From NCBI GenBank assembly GCA_016783665.1, contig JADHWC010000003.1:1959-65958 (forward strand): DNA of 64,000 nt. Reading direction: 5' to 3'. This DNA is from Fidelibacterota bacterium (lineage in GTDB: Bacteria; Fidelibacterota; UBA2242). This document shows, in pieces, positions 10,090 through 51,979 of the stretch. Below the pieces are notes generated by a model, which was not told the origin of the DNA, made no database searches, and saw only the letters and a program-made list of their open reading frames with translations. Within the stretch, counting starts at the first letter, position 1, and each line of letters opens with the position of its first letter. A program made the translations under genes and the position numbers.

Positions 10090-10221
10090 TGGATAATTCC
10101 TTATATAATTTGCATAATTATTGAAAAGCGCATTGAGATGTTACGAATATCATGCCAAAATTTTTAAACGTCATATTGTCAGATATTATTTCCGGAATAC
10201 CATAAAACCTAACCTGGATAA

Positions 10222-10287
10222 ACCCCCGAAGGGGCAGGCCCGCCTGCTCCCGAACCGCTACGGCGGAGAGGGTGGGCAGGCAGAGCC
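10222..10287. repeat. GC-rich palindromic element E1 (REP-like)
   Basis: A ~65 bp segment of >65% GC in ~35% GC surroundings (cccccgaaggggcaggcccgcctgctcccgaaccgctacggcggagagggtgggcagg). It shares gctcccgaac...gagaggg(t/c)gggcagg with the element inside hsdS (19419-19497, opposite strand). Confidence 0.7.
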
Positions 10288-10340
10288 AAAAAGGAAAAGA
10301 GTTAAAAGTGAAAAATGAACAGGCTGTTCCAGTCCAGGCG

Positions 10341-10490
10341 ATTCTGGATACTGGATTCTGGATACTGGATTCTGGATTCTGGATACTGGATTCTAGATAC
10401 TGGATTCTGGATACTGGGTACTGGATTCTGGATACTGGGTACTGGATTCTGGATACTGGGTACTGGATTCTGGATACTGGGTACTGGATA
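10341..10490. repeat. Tandem heptanucleotide array (~21 x [a/t]ctgg[a/g]t) with a 21-bp higher-order unit actgggtactggattctggat x4
   Basis: Direct reading shows attctggatactggattctggat... ending in four perfect 21-mers, in the divergent region between htpG and the receiver/hydrogenase operon. The 79-aa ORF listed here is its translation. Confidence 0.9.
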
Positions 10491-10798
10491 AGAAAAAAAA
10501 CAAGAATATGATTAGTAAGGGACTAATTGTTCACGAAATACGCTATAAATTGTAAATCTTTTGGAGTTTTATGGCAAATATTGTATGCTCCTTTAGATTT
10601 CATTTATTATATTACGGCGCTTTGATGGTTTATTGAAAACACTATAGTACGTATCAGATATCTAACAGCTAAGCGTATATGATACAGTTGCAATAAATTC
10701 TCTGTAAATAAGCCCCTTTTATCAGGCTATTTTAAATAGTATGACCGGGGATAATCGTACATAAAAAATATTAGATCACATTTTAGGAGGACTGTTTA

Positions 10799-14883: not shown

Positions 14884-14939
14884 AATTTCATCTCATTCAC
14901 CTCGTTCCCAAATTTAATTTGGGAATGAGTCGAAATCCA

Positions 14940-17888
14940 TTACACTTTCTCTGAATAATCCTCAAACAACACTCTTTTCACATACTGATTCCGTTTGGGC
15001 TCAGTGAGCTTTTTGTAAAAACCCAAACTATCATCCACCAATCCTTGTAGTAATTTGTCAAATACCTTGTTGAACATAAATCTTTTATTGGATTCTGTGT
15101 TATCACCAAGATGAACTTTCCGTAGTTCCTTATCCTCATTCAACCGGGTTTGTATTTTTTCCAAATTCACTTTGTCATCGTCGTTCAAATCACTACCAAA
15201 GTTCTCATTTAGGACTTGTATGATATGGGATAGTAAATCTTTGAGTTCTTCGGGTGGAGATTCACCCACCCCGGTTGATATAGGTTGTAACTCCCCATCC
15301 TCATACATCAGGGAAATCGGATAGCTATGTTTCTTCTCAATCCTGAAATACTCCAAATCCACATAGGAAAAAACATCTGCCAATCTATCTCTTGTTCTCC
15401 TGGGGAGTTTCCTGTTCAGGAATCGCAGGAAGATATACAGTTTTTCAAGCTTTATATCTTTGAAAGTGATGATTTGAGAAATGTATCCGTACAGTCTAAT
15501 AAAACTCTGAATCTGATGACGGAAATCTTCCCTTTCTTCTTCCTCCAACCTCTTCCAATCTTCTACCACATAGTCCAAAATGGGTTGTAGTTCTTCATCG
15601 GGTATTCTGTCATCGTAGAACTTCTCTATCAACTCATTTACTGTTTCATCCCGGAATAGATTGTATTTCTTTATTTCTTGTTCAATGGAATACAGTTTGT
15701 TGGGGTCGGTTTCCTCTACAAGTAGAGTCCCTTGATAGTATGGTTGGAATGAATCCTGAATGATTTCCGGTTTATTCACAAAGTCCAATACAAGAGTGTC
15801 AGTCTTACCTGTCATCGTTCTGTTCAACCTGCTCAAAGTCTGAACGCACTGGAGTCCTTGAAGTCGTTTATCTACATACATTGTATGAAGTAACGGTTCG
15901 TCAAATCCTGTTTGAAACTTGTTACAAACAATCAGGATTCTATACTGCGGGTCTTTGAAGTTCTCCTGGGTCAATCTTTCAGGGAAACCGTTCAATGATG
16001 GCTCTGTATATTCCTTGTGAGTATCCTTATCATACACCGTTCCACTAAATCCAACCAGGACTTTGAATGGAAATTCCATTTCTTTTAACTGCTTATCAAA
16101 TTCAAGTTTGTATTTGACACAGTGAAGTCTTGAGCGGGTCACCACCATTCCGCGACTCTTGCCGCTTATTTTTAGGGAGCTATGGTTCAGGAAGTGTTCT
16201 AAAATGATTTTGGTTTTTTCAGAGATGGTATGCGGATGAATATCTACATATTTCACCAACATCTTTTTTACACGACTTTCGGGCAGTTCCTTATCCTCCT
16301 CAATCTTTTTATTTAGACGGAAATATCGCTCATAAGTGGTGTAATTCTGTAAAACATCAAGAGTAAAATTTTCTGAAATACTCTGTCTCATTGAATACAA
16401 ATCAAAAGAAACGAACTGTCCGTCCTCGTTCTTTCTGCCAAAGATTTCAAATGTTTTATTCTTCGGTGTTCCACTAAAACCGAAATAGGAAATATGAGCT
16501 TGTCTTCCCCTTGAAATAATTTCATCTAATATCAGTTTATCCACTTCGGTAAGGTCATCCCAATCCTCACCTTCCTGGAACTCATCCAATACAGATTTGG
16601 ACAGAGATTTTTTCAGGTGTTTGGATGTTTCTCCACTTTGAGATGAATGAACTTCATCGATGATAACGCCGAACTTCTTACTTTTCAGTCTGGATATGGA
16701 ATCTGATATAACAGGGAATTTCTGAACTGTGGTAATGATGATGGATTTCCCCAATTCAAGGTATTCTTTCAACTGTTGGGAATTGACATCCACAGGATTC
16801 ACTACACCTTTGGTTTGTTCTAACTGTTTAACGGTATTCCGTATTTGTTTGTCTAAAACCTTTCTGTCTGTAACTACAATTACAGAATCAAACATACCTT
16901 CCGTGTCTGCGGGAGTTCTGTAAAGAGAAGTCAATAGATGAGACAACCAACCAATAGATAAGGATTTACCACTTCCTGTGCTGTGTTGTATCAGATAATT
17001 ATTTCCAACACCTTCTTCAACTACAGATTTCTTCAAGCTCCTGATGACATTCAATTGATGGAATCGGGGGAAAATCAGAAGTTCTTTTTTCTTATCAACC
17101 ACTTTCCCAAGCTTTGAATCATACACCTTCTCTTTTTCTTCACGGATATGAACAAAGTTCTCTATCAAATCCAACATACTGTTGGGATGTAGAATATCCT
17201 CCCACAGATAATGGGTTTTATGTCCTTTAGGATTGACAGGATTTTCAATGTCTTTGTTGTAAGGAAGAAACCGTGTCTTACCACCCATCAACCGTGTCGT
17301 CATTGACACTTTTTCATTCCCTACAGAAAAATACACAAGATTCCGTTTGAATCTGAACAACGGTTCTTTGGGATCGCGGTCATACTTCCATTGTTTCTCA
17401 CCGTCGATATGGTTCTGTCCCGTGAGTGTGTTTTTCAGTTCCATCATCACGATTGGGATTCCATCGATGAAGATTCCCATATCAATAGAGTTCTCATTTT
17501 TCAGAGAGTATTTCAGTTGTCGGATGACGGTAAAACGATTCTGTTTGTATAAATCTTTATGTTCAGGATTCAGCCCGCTCCTGGGCTGGAAATATACCAG
17601 GTGAAAATCACAGCCCCTGTCCTTGACGCCATTCCGTAAGACATCGATAACCCCTCTGTTTTCAATTTCTGTGGATACTCGTTTTATCAGTTTGATTTCT
17701 GTTTCAGAACCATATTGTAATTCAAGTTTTTCAAGGGTTTTAGCCTGGGTTTCCTGAATGAATTCAATCAGTTGGGCAGGAATAAGACAGAGAGTTTTAT
17801 CATATATGGATGGGTCTGATGAAGAATAACCACTACTGACAAGATGTTCTTCAATGTGTTCTTCAAAGTCTTGTTCAAGGTAATTCAT
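14940..17888 (-). CDS. hsdR: Type I restriction enzyme R subunit HsdR
   Basis: 982 aa with an N-terminal PD-(D/E)xK nuclease motif (IDGIPIVMMELK), SF2 helicase motif I (HSTGSGKS) and motif II (DEVH); lies in an hsdM/hsdS context. Confidence 0.85.
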   Translation of the reverse strand: MNYLEQDFEEHIEEHLVSSGYSSSDPSIYDKTLCLIPAQLIEFIQETQAKTLEKLELQYGSETEIKLIKRVSTEIENRGVIDVLRNGVKDRGCDFHLVYFQPRSGLNPEHKDLYKQNRFTVIRQLKYSLKNENSIDMGIFIDGIPIVMMELKNTLTGQNHIDGEKQWKYDRDPKEPLFRFKRNLVYFSVGNEKVSMTTRLMGGKTRFLPYNKDIENPVNPKGHKTHYLWEDILHPNSMLDLIENFVHIREEKEKVYDSKLGKVVDKKKELLIFPRFHQLNVIRSLKKSVVEEGVGNNYLIQHSTGSGKSLSIGWLSHLLTSLYRTPADTEGMFDSVIVVTDRKVLDKQIRNTVKQLEQTKGVVNPVDVNSQQLKEYLELGKSIIITTVQKFPVISDSISRLKSKKFGVIIDEVHSSQSGETSKHLKKSLSKSVLDEFQEGEDWDDLTEVDKLILDEIISRGRQAHISYFGFSGTPKNKTFEIFGRKNEDGQFVSFDLYSMRQSISENFTLDVLQNYTTYERYFRLNKKIEEDKELPESRVKKMLVKYVDIHPHTISEKTKIILEHFLNHSSLKISGKSRGMVVTRSRLHCVKYKLEFDKQLKEMEFPFKVLVGFSGTVYDKDTHKEYTEPSLNGFPERLTQENFKDPQYRILIVCNKFQTGFDEPLLHTMYVDKRLQGLQCVQTLSRLNRTMTGKTDTLVLDFVNKPEIIQDSFQPYYQGTLLVEETDPNKLYSIEQEIKKYNLFRDETVNELIEKFYDDRIPDEELQPILDYVVEDWKRLEEEEREDFRHQIQSFIRLYGYISQIITFKDIKLEKLYIFLRFLNRKLPRRTRDRLADVFSYVDLEYFRIEKKHSYPISLMYEDGELQPISTGVGESPPEELKDLLSHIIQVLNENFGSDLNDDDKVNLEKIQTRLNEDKELRKVHLGDNTESNKRFMFNKVFDKLLQGLVDDSLGFYKKLTEPKRNQYVKRVLFEDYSEKV

Positions 17889-18089: not shown

Positions 18090-18665
18090 CGTAACCCACG
18101 AATTTATTCGTGGGTGATACAATAATGTCTAAACCAAACCGATTCATCGGTTTATCTCCAGATTATGCAACTTCATGAATTGTTCATATTCCTCTTTGAA
18201 GGTCATTTTACGATGATGCTCTTCTTGCGTTCGGATGTATCGTTCGACTTTTCCCACATCAGATTCACTAACAGAAAACGCTCCATAGCCAACCTGCCAA
18301 CTGAATTTTAATTGTACTAAATCCTCCTGATTAATCCAATGAGACGTTTCCCCTTTGATAGATTTCATTACTTGAGCAATTGAGACCTCTCTGGAAAGTA
18401 AAAATAATTGATGCACATGGTCACTTGTCCCATTGATAATTAGAACCTTACAATCCATTTCCTCCAATTTCTCGTATAAATGGGTATGTACATCTTTACG
18501 GATAGCATTAACAAGCAATGGTCTCCGATCTTTAGTTCCAAAGATGCCGTGTATCCATAATTTTGTTAGTGAGTGACTCATAACTTTCCTTTGTATAAAC
18601 CGTTAAAACGGTTTCCTTTTTGTTGTTGTTCATGCTCCCACGATTGAAATCGTGGGTTTCTAACA
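18090..18665 (-). mobile_element. IS200/IS605-family (possibly RAYT-like) element inserted between hsdR and hsdS
   Basis: A Y1/HuH tnpA gene is flanked on each side by a pair of hairpins in mirror arrangement. Left side: cccacgaatttattcgtggg then aaccgattcatcggtt; right side: aaccgttaaaacggtt then cccacgattgaaatcgtggg. Confidence 0.7.
18144..18581 (-). CDS. tnpA: IS200/IS605-family tyrosine (HuH, Y1) transposase TnpA
   Basis: 145 aa with HuH motif (SDHVHQLF) and a C-terminal catalytic Tyr region (ERYIRTQ); N-terminal WIHGIFGTKDRRPLL resembles IS200 TnpA and RAYT. Confidence 0.8.
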   Translation of the reverse strand: MSHSLTKLWIHGIFGTKDRRPLLVNAIRKDVHTHLYEKLEEMDCKVLIINGTSDHVHQLFLLSREVSIAQVMKSIKGETSHWINQEDLVQLKFSWQVGYGAFSVSESDVGKVERYIRTQEEHHRKMTFKEEYEQFMKLHNLEINR

Positions 18666-28728: not shown

Positions 28729-30837
28729 TCAGTTCTTCCCAGCCTTTTTTGCTCTCACTTCGGCAATGACTTCTTCCTCGATGGTCTTTGGCAAAGCGGC
28801 ATAATTAAGAAATTCCATCGAAAATGCAGCTCTACCACTGGATATTGTTCGCAATGCCGAAGCGTAACCGAACATTTCCATTAATGGCACGGTTCCGGTA
28901 AGTTTCTGAGATCCTTTTCGATGTCGACGCATATTATCAATTTTACCGCGACGCCGGTTTATATCTCCGATGACGTCCCCCATATAATTGTCGGGAGTAT
29001 TTACCTCAATTTTCATAATCGGTTCCAACAACTGAGGCGCCGCTTTATGGATGACTTCTCTCAGAGCCTGTTTCGTACAGGTCCGAAATGCCATTTCACT
29101 GGAGTCCACAGGATGGTAGTTTCCATCAATTAATACAAACCTTACATCCACCATTGGATAATCTGCGTAAAGACCTCGCTCAGCACTTTCACGAAACGCC
29201 TTTTCGACTGACGGTATATATTCCCTTGGGATATTGCCACCTTTGATCAGATTGGTAAATTCCAAGCCATTTTTCTTATTAGGTTCTAAGCGAAAGATAA
29301 TATGAGCATATTGTCCCCTGCCGCCGGTTTGTTTTTTTAACTTGTAGTTATATTCCACTTCCTTCGTGATCGATTCACGAAAAGCGACGGCGGGCTTTCC
29401 AACATTTACGACCATTTTATGCTCTGATTCTAAGCGATCAACGATCACTTCAAGATGAAGTTCACCCATCCCGGATATTACTGTTTCTTCGGTTTCGTCA
29501 TTAAAACGAACCTTGAAGGAAGGATCTTCCAATGCCATTTTACCTAATGCTATTGACAGTCGATCCCGGTCTTTTTTTATTTCCGGCTCAATTTTCATAT
29601 CAAGTACTGTTTCCGGATATTTGATACTTTCCAATAAAATCGGATCCCGGTCATCACAAAGCGTATCGCCTGTCGTTGTAAATTTGACGCCGATTAGCGC
29701 GCCAATATCACCGGCTCGCAATGTTTTTACTTCCTGCCGGTTATTCGCATGAATTCTTAAAATCCTTCCAATGCGTTCCTTCTTACCTTTTGTAGAATTT
29801 AAAATGTAACTGCCGGACTCCAGCTCACCTGAATAAACCCTGACAAATGTTTGCTGCCCGACAAATGCATCGTTTGTAATTTTAAACGCTAATGCGGAAA
29901 ATGGGCGTTTATATGAAGGTTTTCTCGACAATGTAATTTCCGGGTCTCGTGTATCTAGTCCGGTTATAATTCCACGATCAATTGGAGAAGGAAGATAATC
30001 AACAACTGCGTCCAGCAATAATCGAACACCTTTATTTTTAAATGCGGCGCCGCAAAAAACAGGCGTTATACAAAGGCTCAAAACAGCATGGCGCGCAGCG
30101 GCTTTAATGTCATTAACTGTGACTTCATCTTCTGCAAGATATTTTTCCATCAGGGGCTTGTCAAAATCAGCCAGTTTTTCGATCATGATTTCCCGGAATT
30201 TTTCTGCCCGTTGTTGAAGATTCGTTGGAATATCCGATATAATCATATCCAGATCATCGTATGTAACGGCTTTCATCGTGATCAGATCGATAACGCCCTT
30301 AAAATCCGCCTCTTTACCAATTGGCAGTTGAAACAATACGGCATTGGCGCCCAGCATTTCATTCATCTGTTCCATGGTATGGAAAACGTCTGCTCCCTGC
30401 CGGTCCATTTTATTAATAAATGCAATCCTGGGAACTTTATAACGGTCAGCCTGGTGCCACACGGTTTCACTCTGAGGTTCGACTCCACCAACAGCACAAA
30501 ATACCATGACAATGCCGTCCAATACCCGCAAGGATCGTTCAACTTCAAGAGTAAAGTCGATATGTCCGGGAGTATCGATAAGATTTATCTGGTGATTTTT
30601 CCACTCCGTCGTAATCGCAGCCGACGTGATTGTAATGCCTCGCTCCTGCTCCTGTTTCATAAAGTCCATGACAGCCTGACCATCATGCACTTCACCTAAC
30701 TTGTGCGTTATTCCCGTAAAAAACAGGATGCGTTCACTGGTCGTGGTTTTACCAGCATCAATGTGGGCAACAATTCCAATATTACGTATTCGTTGTATTT
30801 CTGCATTTTCCATAAATAAATAATTCCTTAAGTTCAT
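28729..30837 (-). CDS. fusA: Elongation factor G family GTPase (EF-G / EF-G2-like)
   Basis: G1 [17 protein letters not shown] and NKMD motifs plus full EF-G domains II-V; the likely true start is the internal Met ([14 protein letters not shown]) at about 30813. Confidence 0.9.
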
Positions 30838-31954
30838 TCGGACGGCGAATTTAAGATTTTAATCCATAAAAGCAAACTCATTTTCGAGGACTTTTACTTC
30901 ATATATCGTGCAAATATTGCGTTTATCGTTCCGGGAAGATCTCCCTTGTACCAGAACCATCCCCTTTCTCGTCTCAATGACCCTGCGTTGATACGGAGCT
31001 TTTTTCAGTGTCTCCTACTGGAACGAAGACACGAGTGGTGTAACACAAACACTCTTGTTTGTGAGCAATTATTTTACCGCGACCAATCTGCTGAGTAATA
31101 TCGTTCCGAAGCACCTGCCCGACCTGTCAGGCGGGGAACCCCGGAACGAGAAATGCGAGAATCCTCACTAATCTGGCTACGGGGTTGTACTCCGTAGCCT
31201 TCATACGTTCCGTAGCAAAGCCACGGAACGAGATTCAACGAGACGCGCTCCCAATCTCTGGCTACAGTGCCCCCCCCCGCCTGAAGGTCGGACAGGCTGC
31301 TCTTTAGCCTATTTAACCGCCCGGAGCGATGCGCTCCGCATACTGTCATTCCTACATTATTTTGTACTTTATCATTGCATCTGACATGAATTTGTCCTGT
31401 TATATTTCATCATGGCTGGGAACCTCGAAAAACGTCACCGCACAACTCTCTGGGAAATGCTCAGAGATTTGCCGAATCTGGCAAAAGTGAACGGTTCCAG
31501 TCATTGGCACGTTTTTCCGAACCATCAGAAAAGACGGCTGAGAATAAAGCAAAACACTAATCATCCGGTCATTGTAAATACCCGTGGACCGCCTGTGATC
31601 GAAGCATCCTTCCGAAGGTTCGGAACCTTCGGAAGGTTTAAAGCAACGTAACGAGATGTATTATTTTACTCTGGCTGCGGGATTGTACTCCGCAGCCATT
31701 TTACACTCTTGTTTGTGAGCGGTAATCTGGCTACAGGGTAGCCAGGTAATAACGCAAACCCGTCTTCTATGAAACGAAGTGGAATCAAACGGGTTTCGCG
31801 GATTTATGGGGAAACATTCTGAGTTTATGACGATGTGCTTTAGTTTTGCTTCGGGGGCGCTGAAACCCATACCGAAAGTTTCTTCGGATTACGCGAAAGA
31901 TTCAAGTAATATCGTGAAGTATGTTAGATAACTTTTGCAAAGTTATCCTTAAAC
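30838..31954. repeat. ~1.1 kb non-coding region dense in GC-rich palindromic/REP-like repeats (possible structured ncRNA locus)
   Basis: Repeated units aatctggctac (x4) and the hairpin ggctacggggttgtactccgtagcc (31178; variant at 31671) occur with stems cgttccgt...acggaacg, two copies of acactcttgtttgtgagc, and a 29-nt near-perfect palindrome ccttccgaaggttcggaaccttcggaagg (31598-31626). The only ORFs are short and GC-skewed. Confidence 0.6.
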
Positions 31955-32503
31955 TTACACCTCGAAATATCGCCGGATTGTATCCAGCTCTTTACGTTTC
32001 TTGGGTTTTGGAGAGGGATATGATTTCTCAGGGTATCCCAGACTGATCAATATATCAATTTGGGTTAATCGGGGAAGATTCAATACTTTTTTTACCTGTT
32101 TTGCATTAAACCAGCCCAGCCAGCAGGTTCCGAGTCCAAGTTCCTCCGCCTGCAATATCAGATGCTCACAGGCGATCCCGATATCGATCAGGCTGTATTT
32201 TACGTTACGGATTTGAGTCCCAAGCCTGGTAATATAGTCCACTTTTTCAGTTATAACGACGATCAGCACCGGCGCTTTTCCGGCGAAACTTGTACTTGCA
32301 TAAATTCCTCTAAAGGCATTTTTCGCCAGTTTTTGTATCATGTTATGATCATCAATCACGATAAATGACCAGGGCTGGGAATTACGCGCAGACGGAGCCA
32401 GGCGGGCCGCTTCTATGCATTGATCAATTAATTTCCTGCTAACCGGTCTGGAAGAGTATTTCCGGGTTGATTGTCGTTTTTGAACCAGTTCAGTGAAATT
32501 CAT
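31955..32503 (-). CDS. Nitroreductase family protein
   Basis: 182 aa with the FMN-binding N-terminus (RQSTRKYS...P) and nitroreductase fold motif PSARNSQPW. Confidence 0.8.
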   Translation of the reverse strand: MNFTELVQKRQSTRKYSSRPVSRKLIDQCIEAARLAPSARNSQPWSFIVIDDHNMIQKLAKNAFRGIYASTSFAGKAPVLIVVITEKVDYITRLGTQIRNVKYSLIDIGIACEHLILQAEELGLGTCWLGWFNAKQVKKVLNLPRLTQIDILISLGYPEKSYPSPKPKKRKELDTIRRYFEV

Positions 32504-49326: not shown

Positions 49327-51720
49327 TCATTTTCTAAATTTATAGGAAATCGAAATAAACCCATTCCGCGTCGCTCCGGGCCAATAATAGGCATAATAAC
49401 CGCCCCATTCATAGCCATACCCGTATGTTGAATACAATTTATTCAGGATATTATTCACCTTACAATTAACTTCAATATTCTTAAATACATACCGGATGCC
49501 GCCGTCCAGCAGCCAAAAAGCGTCATTGGTTCCGAGGTTTTGTTTGTCGAGATACTGTTTCCCCACATAGCGCATCGCAATGAAAAACGTCAGCTGATCA
49601 ATCGGATTCAATCGCAGACTGCCGTTAAATAATATCGATGGAACATTGGGAATGACCTTATCCTTACAGCTACCGCTCTGAAAAATATGCCGGCTTATGC
49701 TGCTGTTCAGGTTCACTGCCCAGAATGATGACGGCTGATAATTCAGTTCCAGTTCAATTCCCTGGTGCAATGTCGCGTCGGAATGATAATAGATGTACTC
49801 TCCCTCCTGTTCAACATCGATGTTTTTCAACTGCTCGTTTTTATAATTAATCCTATACAGGTTCAGGTCGAACTCGAATTGGCGGCTTCGATAACTGCCG
49901 CCTAATTCATAATCGTTTATCAATTCAGCTGACGCCTTCCGGGGAGTGCTCCATACATCGTCGGCTTCGATGATCTGATCGTCTGCCGGTTCGCGCTGGG
50001 CTTTCCCGTAATTCGCAAAGACGGATAACTCATCGGTAAATGAATATATCGCTCCAAAGCGTGGATTCACGAATCTCCACACCGCATCCAATTGATACCC
50101 GACGGCATGTCCGATCTTCTTCTGATCCATATTCCAGTGAATGTATTGATACTGCAGATCGGCAATCAGTTTCAATTTTTCAAGCGGTTCAAAAGCAAAG
50201 TGAGCGAAACCTGTTGTGATCAATTTTTCACCAATATAGTTATAATACCGATACCAGTCTTCGGAAATTAGAGACGATAAATCAGGATCGGAGAAATCAG
50301 CGATTTCACCGTAGTGATCACCGGTATAGAAACGAATCTCACCGCCGATATCCAGTCGATATTTATTACGAATATATGTCAGTGTCGGAATCATCCCGAA
50401 ATAGTTATTGACGATCCATTTCCTACGAGTAAAGCCCAATTCGCGGCTACTATATAAATCCCACGGGTAATCCGGATAATAATTATCAAGATTATAGGAA
50501 AACAGGAAATCTCTGAAATCGTCCCGGTCATCAGTTCCAATGTCATTGGTAAGATCATAACCGGATGACTTTTCGGTCTCGTAATACCCCTCGCCCATCA
50601 CAAGGTAAGCGACATTACTGAAGTGAAGACGATCGCTGATCCGCCAGAAGCTGTTCAAAGAATAGACCTGTTGTAAAAAGTCATCGATATAAGATTGATA
50701 ACCAGCGCGCCGCTTTTTACGGTCATTGATATCATCAGCAGAAACGCCGTCCCACATCAGATGACTTCGTTCATAGCCTATCAATGCCCTGAATTGATGA
50801 GTGAATTTAACACCGTCGTATTCAATCCCGACAGATCCGGCTTTCTGATCGGTATCATGAAAATCACGATAGCCTTCGGATTTAATCTGTGAAAGCCTTG
50901 CCGATAGTTTTACTCTTTTATTGAAAAGCGCTCCACTAGCGGCTTTTAGATGGATTTTCGACGTATTATACGAACCCGCGCCCACATTCAGTGACAATTC
51001 CGGTTTATCGGATCCAATCGATGTAATCACATTTATCGATCCTCCAAAAGCCGAAGCGCCGTAAAGGCTGTTGCCAATCCCGCGCTGTATCTGAACATCT
51101 TCGGCATCACTGAGAACATCGCCATGATCTACCCAATAGACCTGATGACTTTCATTATCGTTCAATGGCACATTATTCATCATCACGGCGATGCGGCTCT
51201 GATCGAATCCCCTAATCTGGACATAGGAATAACCGGTTCCGTTGCCGCTTTCACTGTAGGAATAAACACCCGGTTCCATAGCAAGTATCATCGGTAAATC
51301 TTCGACAGTGTAGCGGTTTTGAATTTCCTCAGCAGTAAGTTCCGAAAAGGCGACCGGTGTTTTTCCTTTCACGGCTCGTGTGGCAGTCACAAAGACATCT
51401 TTGCCCGTTAATACTTCCGGAACAAGATATATATCGCCGACAGTACTTTTTTTTACTAAAAATGTCGTATCCCTGAACGCAATGTGGGAAACGGTTATTT
51501 TACAGGGCAATATTGTGTAATTCAGCACAAAATCGCCGGACTCATTGGAGTAAGTTCCCTCACCGGTTTCAAGAAATATATTGGCATAATCAATCGGTTT
51601 TCCCGTTGACCGGGATACTATTTTACCGGTTATGAGATTTTCATTGCTGAATCCCACACTTGTGAAAAAAAGCGTAATTAGAATAAAAATGAAAAATGCG
51701 GAGAATGTTTTTTGGGTCAT
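49327..51720 (-). CDS. TonB-dependent outer-membrane receptor with N-terminal carboxypeptidase-regulatory-like domain
   Basis: 797 aa with a signal peptide, a CarboxypepD_reg-like beta-sandwich (GKIVSRSTGKPIDYANIF...SGDFVL), plug domain and a long beta-barrel. Confidence 0.8.
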   Translation of the reverse strand: MTQKTFSAFFIFILITLFFTSVGFSNENLITGKIVSRSTGKPIDYANIFLETGEGTYSNESGDFVLNYTILPCKITVSHIAFRDTTFLVKKSTVGDIYLVPEVLTGKDVFVTATRAVKGKTPVAFSELTAEEIQNRYTVEDLPMILAMEPGVYSYSESGNGTGYSYVQIRGFDQSRIAVMMNNVPLNDNESHQVYWVDHGDVLSDAEDVQIQRGIGNSLYGASAFGGSINVITSIGSDKPELSLNVGAGSYNTSKIHLKAASGALFNKRVKLSARLSQIKSEGYRDFHDTDQKAGSVGIEYDGVKFTHQFRALIGYERSHLMWDGVSADDINDRKKRRAGYQSYIDDFLQQVYSLNSFWRISDRLHFSNVAYLVMGEGYYETEKSSGYDLTNDIGTDDRDDFRDFLFSYNLDNYYPDYPWDLYSSRELGFTRRKWIVNNYFGMIPTLTYIRNKYRLDIGGEIRFYTGDHYGEIADFSDPDLSSLISEDWYRYYNYIGEKLITTGFAHFAFEPLEKLKLIADLQYQYIHWNMDQKKIGHAVGYQLDAVWRFVNPRFGAIYSFTDELSVFANYGKAQREPADDQIIEADDVWSTPRKASAELINDYELGGSYRSRQFEFDLNLYRINYKNEQLKNIDVEQEGEYIYYHSDATLHQGIELELNYQPSSFWAVNLNSSISRHIFQSGSCKDKVIPNVPSILFNGSLRLNPIDQLTFFIAMRYVGKQYLDKQNLGTNDAFWLLDGGIRYVFKNIEVNCKVNNILNKLYSTYGYGYEWGGYYAYYWPGATRNGFISISYKFRK

Positions 51721-51886
51721 GATAAGCTCCCTTCGCTGGTATTATCCAGATCAGGTTCAAAGGGTATTTTCTCAGCCGTTCACGTGTTAGTGAAAAGCAC
51801 CCCCAGAACTTCAGTTTTTAAATATCACAATTACAATTTAATAACTATTTATTACTAAAATCAAATAGTTTTCATAACAATATTAG

Positions 51887-51979
51887 CGGGAACGCCTGGG
51901 AGTCGAACCCAGCTCCCCGATTGTATCGGGGACAGCGATTTTGAAGACCGCGACACCCACCGGGGTTGCATTCATTCCC
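51887..51979 (-). tRNA. selC: Probable selenocysteine tRNA (tRNA-Sec, anticodon UCA)
   Basis: Minus-strand RNA GGGAAUGAAUGCAACCCCGGUGGGUGUCGCGGUCUUCAAAAUCGCUGUCCCCGAUACAAUCGGGGAGCUGGGUUCGACUCCCAGGCGUUCCCG, ~93 nt. It has a long variable arm (CCCCGAU-ACA-AUCGGGG), T-loop UUCGACU, anticodon loop CUUCAAA, discriminator G, and an extended acceptor stem with one G.U pair. Confidence 0.72.

Follow-up and report, generated by a model that had tools for sequence, protein, structure and literature searches.

A probable BIME-like mosaic of REP-type hairpin repeats between the nitroreductase and EF-G genes in a Fidelibacterota bacterium

The transposase TnpA-REP of E. coli binds folded single-stranded repetitive extragenic palindromes (REPs), for which it needs both an irregularity in the stem and an adjacent tag, cuts at a CT on either the 5' or the 3' side of the repeat, and recombines bacterial interspersed mosaic elements (BIMEs), whose defining layout is a REP with an inverted REP (iREP) (PMC3333891; PMC8266576). 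We analyzed a stretch of 64,000 nt from a Fidelibacterota bacterium (assembly GCA_016783665.1, contig JADHWC010000003.1, positions 1,959 to 65,958 of the forward strand), hereafter the window, whose own numbering is used throughout. We propose that the spacer between its genes for a nitroreductase and elongation factor G (EF-G), termed here the block (30838–31954), quite likely consists of REP-type DNA hairpin repeats which have accumulated at this site as a BIME-like mosaic. As in the E. coli system, whose enzyme belongs to group 2 of the REP-associated tyrosine transposases (RAYTs), there are two related hairpin classes (y and z in E. coli, A and B here) that form inverted pairs with variable linkers and gather in intergenic clusters. 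The stem is irregular in both families, with a mismatch that is required for binding in E. coli and an invariant G·T pair here, and the dinucleotide CT, at which the E. coli enzyme cuts, also adjoins the hairpin here. The E. coli REPtron, in which REP units border the gene of the cognate HUH Y1 transposase, has counterparts in relatives of the present organism, and in both settings some strains or genomes carry the transposase gene whereas close relatives lack it. The present family differs from the E. coli REPs in that it lacks an unpaired 5' GTAG and has a tag of the form N-C-T-(G/C), in its far smaller number of copies, in the shared orientation of the class-A units that flank RAYT genes and in its occurrence in a different phylum.

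The REPIN–RAYT systems of Pseudomonas (RAYT group 3; PMC3116915) are likewise comparable, as their repeats are extragenic, their inverted doublets are likely to be the mobile unit, and hairpin and RAYT co-evolve. However, the two halves of the doublet are of distinct sequence classes in the present family, the linkers are very short (4–28 nt), the populations appear small, and several non-REP modules (C, V, Z and P below) travel along with the hairpins. The apparent copy number is nearer the modest 16-mer counts of RAYT groups 1 and 4 than those of groups 2 and 3. Palindromic-repeat families have already been described in 8 phyla, according to a survey by Di Nocera et al. (2013, PMC3733652). 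The GTAG/CGTC superfamilies and 'TIRtrons' described there share with the present family stems of 6–13 bp, loops of 2–3 nt, G·T pairs, subfamilies set apart by complementary changes, self-complementary long loops, and dimers or clusters; the terminal tag here, however, is neither GTAG nor CGTC, and Neomarinimicrobiota are not among the example phyla named in the consulted portion of that survey. Finally, elements of the IS200/IS605 type (e.g. IS608, or the gene at 18144–18581 of the window) have in common with the present system an HUH single-tyrosine transposase, subterminal hairpins on one strand and a presumed single-strand chemistry. They differ in that the block has no transposase gene, that the linked enzyme in relatives is of the RAYT type by NCBIfam, and that most copies of the hairpin have no transposase at all.

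Paired hairpin classes in the spacer

The block extends from the start of the EF-G gene to the stop of the nitroreductase gene, both of which lie on the minus strand, with a RecN gene beyond the latter. The first-pass annotation had singled it out as a GC-rich interval of about 1.1 kb, and at 1117 nt it is indeed the largest gap between long open reading frames (ORFs) in the window, where such gaps have a median of 80 nt; its GC content is 46.3%, rising to 54% in 31006–31330, compared to 39.1% for the window as a whole. EF-G probably starts at the ATG at 30813, which would make the gap about 1141 nt; in L001 (L-numbers label the comparison contigs or loci) the gene call for EF-G is 694 aa long, and the homology of the L114 EF-G stops at 30818. 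An independent assembly, L001, carries the block at 100% identity and L002 at 99.9%, and hence it is real sequence rather than an assembly artefact. Two Logan contigs from independent assemblies of the same species (L003 and L004) terminate precisely at the 29-nt palindrome at 31608, which shows that these repeats break short-read assemblies, as such clusters do in metagenome data. The closest named homologues of the nitroreductase are found in Marinimicrobia (80–81% identity), and this phylum (Neomarinimicrobiota) is the probable origin of the window.

The core repeats of the block belong to two hairpin classes with a common plan: CT serves as a 5' tag, the stem of 11 bp always includes a G·T wobble, and the loop has 3 nt. 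Class A has the form NCTG-GCTACGGGG-TGT-CTCCGTAGCC on the plus strand, and class B, with the same architecture, the form CTCG-TTCCGGGG…CTCCGGAACG on the minus strand; on the plus strand the latter reads CGTTCCGG…CCGGAACG-AG, and it is the companion of A almost everywhere. When B is taken on its matching strand, NNCTCGTTCCGGGG-loop-CTCCGGAACG parallels the NNCTGGCTACGGGG-loop-CTCCGTAGCC of A, and a covariance model built from the A hairpins also matches B on the opposite strand. The units are 28–29 nt long, within the 20–50 nt of REP stem-loops, and fold as DNA at about –10 kcal/mol (z-score –5 to –6.6). Class A is more stable on the plus strand and class B on the minus strand (–10.6 versus –8.8 kcal/mol for the short B of the block), as would be expected of a REP/iREP pair. 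This layout is realized directly in the block, where a long-loop B is followed, after a linker of 21 nt, by an A hairpin, which in turn forms an inverted pair with a short B across a 6-nt linker (TTCATA). Related classes thus stand as REP and inverted REP with short linkers between them, and A/B pairing recurs in L047, where the A+B unit of 105 nt is repeated in tandem, as well as in L064, L079, L086, L098, L115 and L120.

Several of the individual motifs reported from the first pass hold up. The hairpin GGCTACGG-N9-CCGTAGCC lies at 31175–31199 and its variant GGCTGCGG-N9-CCGCAGCC at 31673–31697, with a compensatory change from A:T to G:C, and for neither did any of 100 shuffles give a match. 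The stem cgttccgt…acggaacg is present at 31206–31230, the 18-mer ACACTCTTGTTTGTGAGC occurs at both 31049 and 31703, the 29-nt palindrome described as near-perfect is in fact perfect, and the degenerate tandem unit, put at about 90 bp, measures ~82–85 nt (31135–31182 versus 31217–31267). The motif said to occur four times is found less often: AATCTGGCTAC is exact only twice, the block holds three copies of its core TCTGGCTAC, and a count of five is reached only if one mismatch and the reverse arm are admitted. The GTAG/CTAC had been read as the tetranucleotide typical of REPs; it is present in the class-A stem but base-paired there, not an unpaired 5' tag, and class B has GGAAC/GTTCC in its place.

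Covariation supports the common plan of the two classes. Across 18 distinct variants of A and of reverse-complemented B from many loci, 99% of positions are paired, a figure inflated by the structure-aware patterns and models with which the sequences were gathered, and at 7 of the 11 stem pairs both partners have changed; compensatory differences from genome to genome remain informative in spite of this bias. None of 500 shuffles reached the observed pairing and covariation, and slid controls collapsed. Two features are invariant in all 18 variants: the CT of alignment columns 3–4, two bases 5' of the stem, which is followed by G or C, and the G·T (or G·U) wobble at the ninth pair (columns 13/21).

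Copies and transposase genes in related genomes

To map the spread of the family the pattern TCTGGCTRCGG-N9-CCGYAGCC was scanned over one genome per prokaryotic species, which returned 108 loci. We treated 96 of the matches as chance because their loops are unrelated and their loci mostly of high GC content (median 65%). Another 15 matches, at 13 loci, carry the family loop GG(T/C)T(G/A)(T/C)(A/G)CT and come from six low-GC metagenome-assembled genomes (MAGs), four of which bear the label Candidatus Neomarinimicrobiota. The richest MAG, CSMAG_1237, holds at least 7 exact copies of A, spread over 6 contigs. Copies identical to the first A hairpin of the block are present in L018, L036, L067 and L098. 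At the 11 mapped Neomarinimicrobiota loci the copies lie between long ORFs, in keeping with the extragenic position of REPs, with the exception of L086, where ORFs on both strands overlap the hairpin site, and the orientation of the hairpin relative to the neighboring genes varies from locus to locus. Scans of viral contigs for the A hairpin and module C gave no match. Within the window itself no A hairpin was found outside the block, either by the pattern or, at E<1, by the covariance model run with its filters off. An isolated class-B-like hairpin, CATTCCCAAATTAAATTTGGGAACGAG, stands at 14901–14927 on the minus strand, downstream of the gene at 14940–17888, and units of the form TTCCCAAA…TTTGGGAACGA that resemble it are present in L036.

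The link of these hairpins to RAYT genes emerges from the relatives. A 178-aa ORF of L018 (6137–6673) scores 94.6 bits on the NCBIfam model for REP-associated tyrosine transposases (NF047646, cut-off 80) and 20.8 bits on that for IS200/IS605 transposases (NF033573, cut-off 55). Its sole match in the PDB is the E. coli TnpArep structure 4ER8, and source records list its homologues as RayT or as REP-associated tyrosine transposase. The gene is bracketed by two A copies, with B and A hairpins on each side. Homologues with 52–74% identity are encoded in L114, L115, L119, L120, L123 and L125, of which that of L114 is the 74% one and four further ones show 52–69%; the HNHLH and DYIHLNPV motifs, which hold the HUH and the catalytic tyrosine, are found in the L018 and L114 proteins. 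Repeats border the RAYT gene in L018 and in all six of these contigs, and every RAYT gene examined in the clade is flanked by lineage-specific, covarying versions of both hairpin types: L120 has GGGC/GTCC in A and B alike, and L119 and L123 have GTTAC…GTAAC stems. Such matched versions of hairpin and enzyme are the co-evolution described for REPtrons. The A hairpin ends ~45 nt upstream of the RAYT ATG in L018, L114 and L115, with a TTGACA box in between, and the hairpin of L119 lies ~44 nt upstream of its RAYT. Two side observations concern these genes. The L114 RAYT has an in-frame TAG in place of a conserved Trp, ~20 codons before its end (around position 2025 of the reverse complement), and may be decaying or a sequence variant. 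In L119 (2501–3814) there are two tandem RAYT copies, each with GTTACATCGCTCCGCGGTGTAAC before and CGTCGCAACGCGGAGCGTTGCGACGAG after it, which suggests a local duplication of the whole REPtron unit.

No RAYT gene or remnant was detected above noise in the window in a tblastn search with the L018 protein. As neither the locus nor the rest of the 64 kb holds such a gene, the cluster would be either the remnant of a REPtron or serviced in trans, and we regard the locus as a probable REPtron without its RAYT in this genome. The transposase gene at 18144–18581 (minus strand), to which the service of the repeats had initially been ascribed, was rejected as the cognate RAYT. By its scores (67.6 bits on NF033573, only 21.2 on the RAYT model) it is of the IS200/IS605 type, its product has no similarity to the hairpin-linked RAYT of L018, and it is bracketed by its own, unrelated hairpins of the form CCCACGA-N6-TCGTGGG (region 18095–18656; CCCACGAATTTATTCGTGGG and CCCACGATTGAAATCGTGGG), the sole two of their kind in the window.

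The flanked RAYT genes also admit a reading in which the A…RAYT…A units are autonomous IS200/IS605-like elements and the block is debris of insertion and excision at a hotspot, rather than a set of dispersed domesticated REPs. Every A hairpin that flanks a RAYT gene points the same way as that gene, as the hairpins at the left and right IS200/IS605 ends do, the observed copy numbers are low, L119 carries a tandem RAYT pair, the RAYT genes sit at differing loci in differing genomes, and the presence of a RAYT in this very spacer differs among three close relatives. However, the scores of the L018 protein on the two models favor a RAYT, no RAYT adjoins the hairpin at 12 of the 13 family-type A loci (10 of these 12 examined directly), and A and B form inverted REP/iREP pairs of the BIME type, which IS ends do not. 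We hence regard such debris as an unlikely explanation of the block.

Turnover of the spacer and its other modules

The BIME-like cluster that had been suspected at this locus is borne out by the two hairpin classes, their inverted pairing, the recurrence of the repeats between genes, the hairpins that flank RAYT genes in relatives and a syntenic RAYT in L114. The comparison of the spacer in relatives, which had been suggested earlier, shows that mosaics of 664 and ~1280 nt occur close by and spacers of only 102–145 nt farther off. In the window the spacer (1117–1141 nt) has the module order V, Z, B, A, B, ORF-79, P, A, Z, C (Table 1). In L114, whose EF-G gene is 93.6% and whose nitroreductase and RecN genes are 91.6% identical in nucleotide sequence, it is ~1280 nt long and reads C, an A variant GGTTACGG…CCGTAACC, B, A, RAYT, B and an A half-site; this syntenic contig was also the single metagenome match to module C. 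In L131 (nitroreductase 90% identical in amino acid sequence) the 664 nt comprise the EF-G leader, a V-Z-long-B segment (88.6%), the nitroreductase tail (86.7%), a 27-nt piece of C and a degenerate A. The more distant L129 (nitroreductase 81% aa identity, 102 nt) is without these modules, as is L130 (71% aa identity, 145 nt) except for a weak P-like hairpin. Thus the window, L131 and L114 hold three different mosaics although their flanking genes are ~87–94% identical in DNA sequence. Given the short spacers of L129 and L130 and the differing mosaics of the close relatives, the cluster arrived after these lineages split and has been reshuffled since, a turnover that argues for mobile DNA and against a single conserved RNA.

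The last point bears on the other suggestion of the first pass, a large structured non-coding RNA, taken here as one molecule of known or novel class that spans all 1.1 kb. In its favor are the very low predicted folding energies of the whole block (–382 and –370 kcal/mol on the two strands) and a GC content above that of the surroundings. The energies, however, are explained by many independent local hairpins, which individually fold far better than shuffles (z –4.7 to –6.6), and the middle of the block is protein-coding by its codon pattern. The recommended search of RNA families was run against Rfam 15, and no model explains the block: there is no match at the gathering thresholds and, at E≤10, only three at noise level (14–18 bits, E 3–6), and seven related loci gave none at E≤0.1. 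Furthermore, the order, content and length of the modules differ among the window, L131 and L114, orientation varies as well, and the more distant relatives have only 102–145 nt in this place. A single large RNA is thus exceedingly improbable, being largely refuted by the comparative data. The block was also considered as a replication origin or CRISPR array, and no DnaA-box or regular spacer pattern was apparent in the sequence, although no dedicated test was made.

Table 1. Genes, hairpins and modules at the nitroreductase/EF-G spacer, in window coordinates
Feature	Position	Strand	Support or related copies
EF-G gene	28729–30837	–	ORF; likely start ATG 30813
EF-G upstream region, presumed promoter and leader	30814–31007	–	30838–~30905 94% identical in L131
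Module V: hairpin GTGTCTCC…AGACAC, then GAG	31008–31035	+	Related copies in L072, L098, L131; in L114 upstream of C
Module Z, copy 1: 18-nt repeat ACACTCTTGTTTGTGAGC and small hairpin CACAAACA-CTCT-TGTTTGTG	31044–31066	+	Z also in L098, L131
Class-B REP, long-loop: outer stem CGTTCCG/CGGAACG, internal loop hairpin, tail …ACGAG (5'-CTCG on the minus strand)	31102–31150	–	Homologues in L018, L052, L067, L131
Class-A REP hairpin TCTG-GCTACGGGG-TGT-CTCCGTAGCC, 11-bp stem, G·T wobble	31172–31199	+	Covariance model 52 bits, E 3.6e-12
Class-B REP, short form	31206–31234	–	A covariance model on the minus strand, 25.1 bits, E 1.2e-4
Half-site TCTGGCTACAG, C9 run, inverted partial copy (31275–31296) of the long-B interior	31257–31296		Repeat analysis
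ORF-79 (79 aa)	31412–31651	+	phmmer homologues; runs into palindrome P
Module P: perfect 14+1+14 palindrome CCTTCCGAAGGTTC-G-GAACCTTCGGAAGG	31608–31636		z –6.5
Degenerate class-B tail copy AAAGCAACGTAACGAGAT	31640–31657	+	89% identical to 31217–31234
Class-A REP, second copy TCTGGCTGCGGGATTGTACTCCGCAGCC	31670–31697	+	Covariance model 46.7 bits, E 1.1e-10
Module Z, copy 2: second 18-nt direct repeat ACACTCTTGTTTGTGAGC	31703–31720	+	Exact repeat
Short perfect hairpin TCTGGCTAC-AGG-GTAGCCAGG, truncated A-type unit	31726–31746		z –4.7; covariance model 19.3/17.8 bits on the two strands
Module C, ~120 nt, non-coding, one 13-bp hairpin	31749–31872		nhmmer copies in relatives
Tail 3' of the nitroreductase stop, with hairpin GATAACTTTTGCAAAGTTATC (31927–31947)	31873–31954	–	86.7% identical in L131
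Nitroreductase gene	31955–32503	–	Stop adjoins the block

The block encloses a gene fragment and a conserved module in addition to the hairpins. Contrary to the initial statement that it has no credible ORF, ORF-79 has 8 homologues in a phmmer search of a library of 1.84 billion representative proteins (E 3.6e-10 to 5.7e-4), which have in common the first ~62 residues (MAGNxEK…W..LR.LPN..NG.G.WHVFP..KK…RGPP). The four longer homologues extend into predicted secreted-type domains, and in 4 of the 5 whose sequences were compared a hydrophobic stretch follows the module. Nucleotide differences are most frequent at codon position 3, then 1, then 2, with many synonymous codons, a substitution pattern which indicates that the ORF is coding; Pfam searches with the small ORFs of the block, including this one, gave no match even at E≤10. 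As ORF-79 runs into palindrome P and is without the hydrophobic part, its sequence is probably that of a truncated gene. On two of three unrelated contigs that hold the same module (L126 and L128; the third is L127) REP-type hairpins adjoin it.

Module C was recovered with nhmmer in three further places, L079 (5544–5648), L098 (4382–4490) and L114 (2493–2614), and the four copies are ~90% identical, stand in differing gene contexts, and are all within ~130 nt of an A hairpin. A coding role was rejected as the indels that separate them (2 and 15 nt) are not all multiples of three, and module C is hence taken to be non-coding. It was not retained as a stable RNA either, since its folding stability has a z-score of +0.05 to –1.5, and four copies are too few for covariation to have power; it has no match in Rfam. 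Modules V, Z and P are likewise found again in relatives, and P-related copies stand beside an A hairpin in both L015 and L013. Pairing of the inverted partial copy at 31275–31296 with 31114–31136 could yield a hairpin that spans ~185 nt.

Could the hairpins act mainly as RNA, stabilizing or terminating the nitroreductase and EF-G mRNAs, with module C encoding a small RNA? Such a role would suit hairpins whose stability depends on the strand and whose G·T (G·U) wobble never varies, and G·T pairing has been taken as a hint of RNA function in the palindromic-repeat survey (PMC3733652). Module C is ~90% conserved over its four loci, its loop is nearly invariant, and its single stem substitution keeps the pair on the minus strand only. 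Against this, the orientation of the hairpins relative to the flanking genes is inconsistent, the A and B of a pair are each most stable on a different strand, the hairpins are not followed by the U-runs of intrinsic terminators, no Rfam family matches, the stability of module C is ordinary, and the tight linkage to RAYT genes points to a substrate at the level of DNA. The hairpin at 31927–31947 in the nitroreductase tail, a possible terminator, has no U-run and was not reported by a terminator scan. A predominantly RNA-level function is therefore quite unlikely. Secondary roles in RNA are known for REPs, and a contribution of this kind would be compatible with a REP mosaic.

Outside the block, two further features of the window may be recorded. 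At 10340–10490 there are ~21 GATACTG heptamers in tandem, forming 7 copies of a 21-nt unit, within a 709-nt gap between divergent genes (10090–10798), and a selenocysteine tRNA (51888–51979, minus strand) lies directly beside a thiamine pyrophosphate (TPP) riboswitch (51709–51814, minus strand).

A possible mechanism and its implications

By analogy to TnpA-REP of E. coli, a RAYT would bind the folded single-stranded hairpin through the irregularity of its stem and the adjacent tag, cut at a nearby CT and rejoin the strands. Repeated cutting and rejoining of this kind could copy and reshuffle REP units together with their linkers, and might thereby give rise to mosaics like those of the window, L131 and L114. 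The Neomarinimicrobiota RAYT would, on the same analogy, recognize the G·T-bearing stem with its CT tag, which is presented by A on one strand and by B on the other.

Several observations weigh against interpreting the block as a REP mosaic, in addition to the bias in the pairing figure given above. The canonical unpaired GTAG 5' of the stem is absent. The 64 kb hold just two A and two clear B hairpins, along with the one B-like hairpin at 14901, nearly all of them in this block, and even the at least 7 A copies of the best MAG are far below the hundreds that are typical of classical REPs. The lack of a detectable RAYT in the window leaves activity in this genome unproven, and a REP model by itself leaves module C, the 79-aa ORF and modules V, Z and P unexplained.

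The contents of the spacer might alternatively be seen as cargo, since one and the same spacer holds a RAYT in L114 and, in the window, the N-terminal module of a small family of membrane proteins, but no such insert in L131. REP pairs would then delimit a fixed hotspot of the chromosome where cargo is swapped, and module C, travelling with them, would be either a novel small RNA or a site for protein binding. We consider this very unlikely; if true, it would mean REP-mediated shuffling of cassettes outside Proteobacteria, going beyond a passive build-up of repeats.

A BIME-like mosaic of REP-type repeats is an element of a kind that is already known, here in Neomarinimicrobiota, and the result opens no new kind of biology. 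To our knowledge, however, work on REP/RAYT systems has been confined almost entirely to Proteobacteria. The present loci constitute a clear two-class, BIME-like family with its cognate RAYT clade in an abundant lineage without cultured members, the Neomarinimicrobiota, where hairpin and enzyme co-evolve alike. The invariant G·T wobble and the CT tag, which stand in place of an unpaired GTAG, are candidate determinants of recognition. Hypervariable spacers of this kind beside conserved genes could serve for the typing of strains, and an insert of 1 kb directly upstream of EF-G might affect the expression of this gene.

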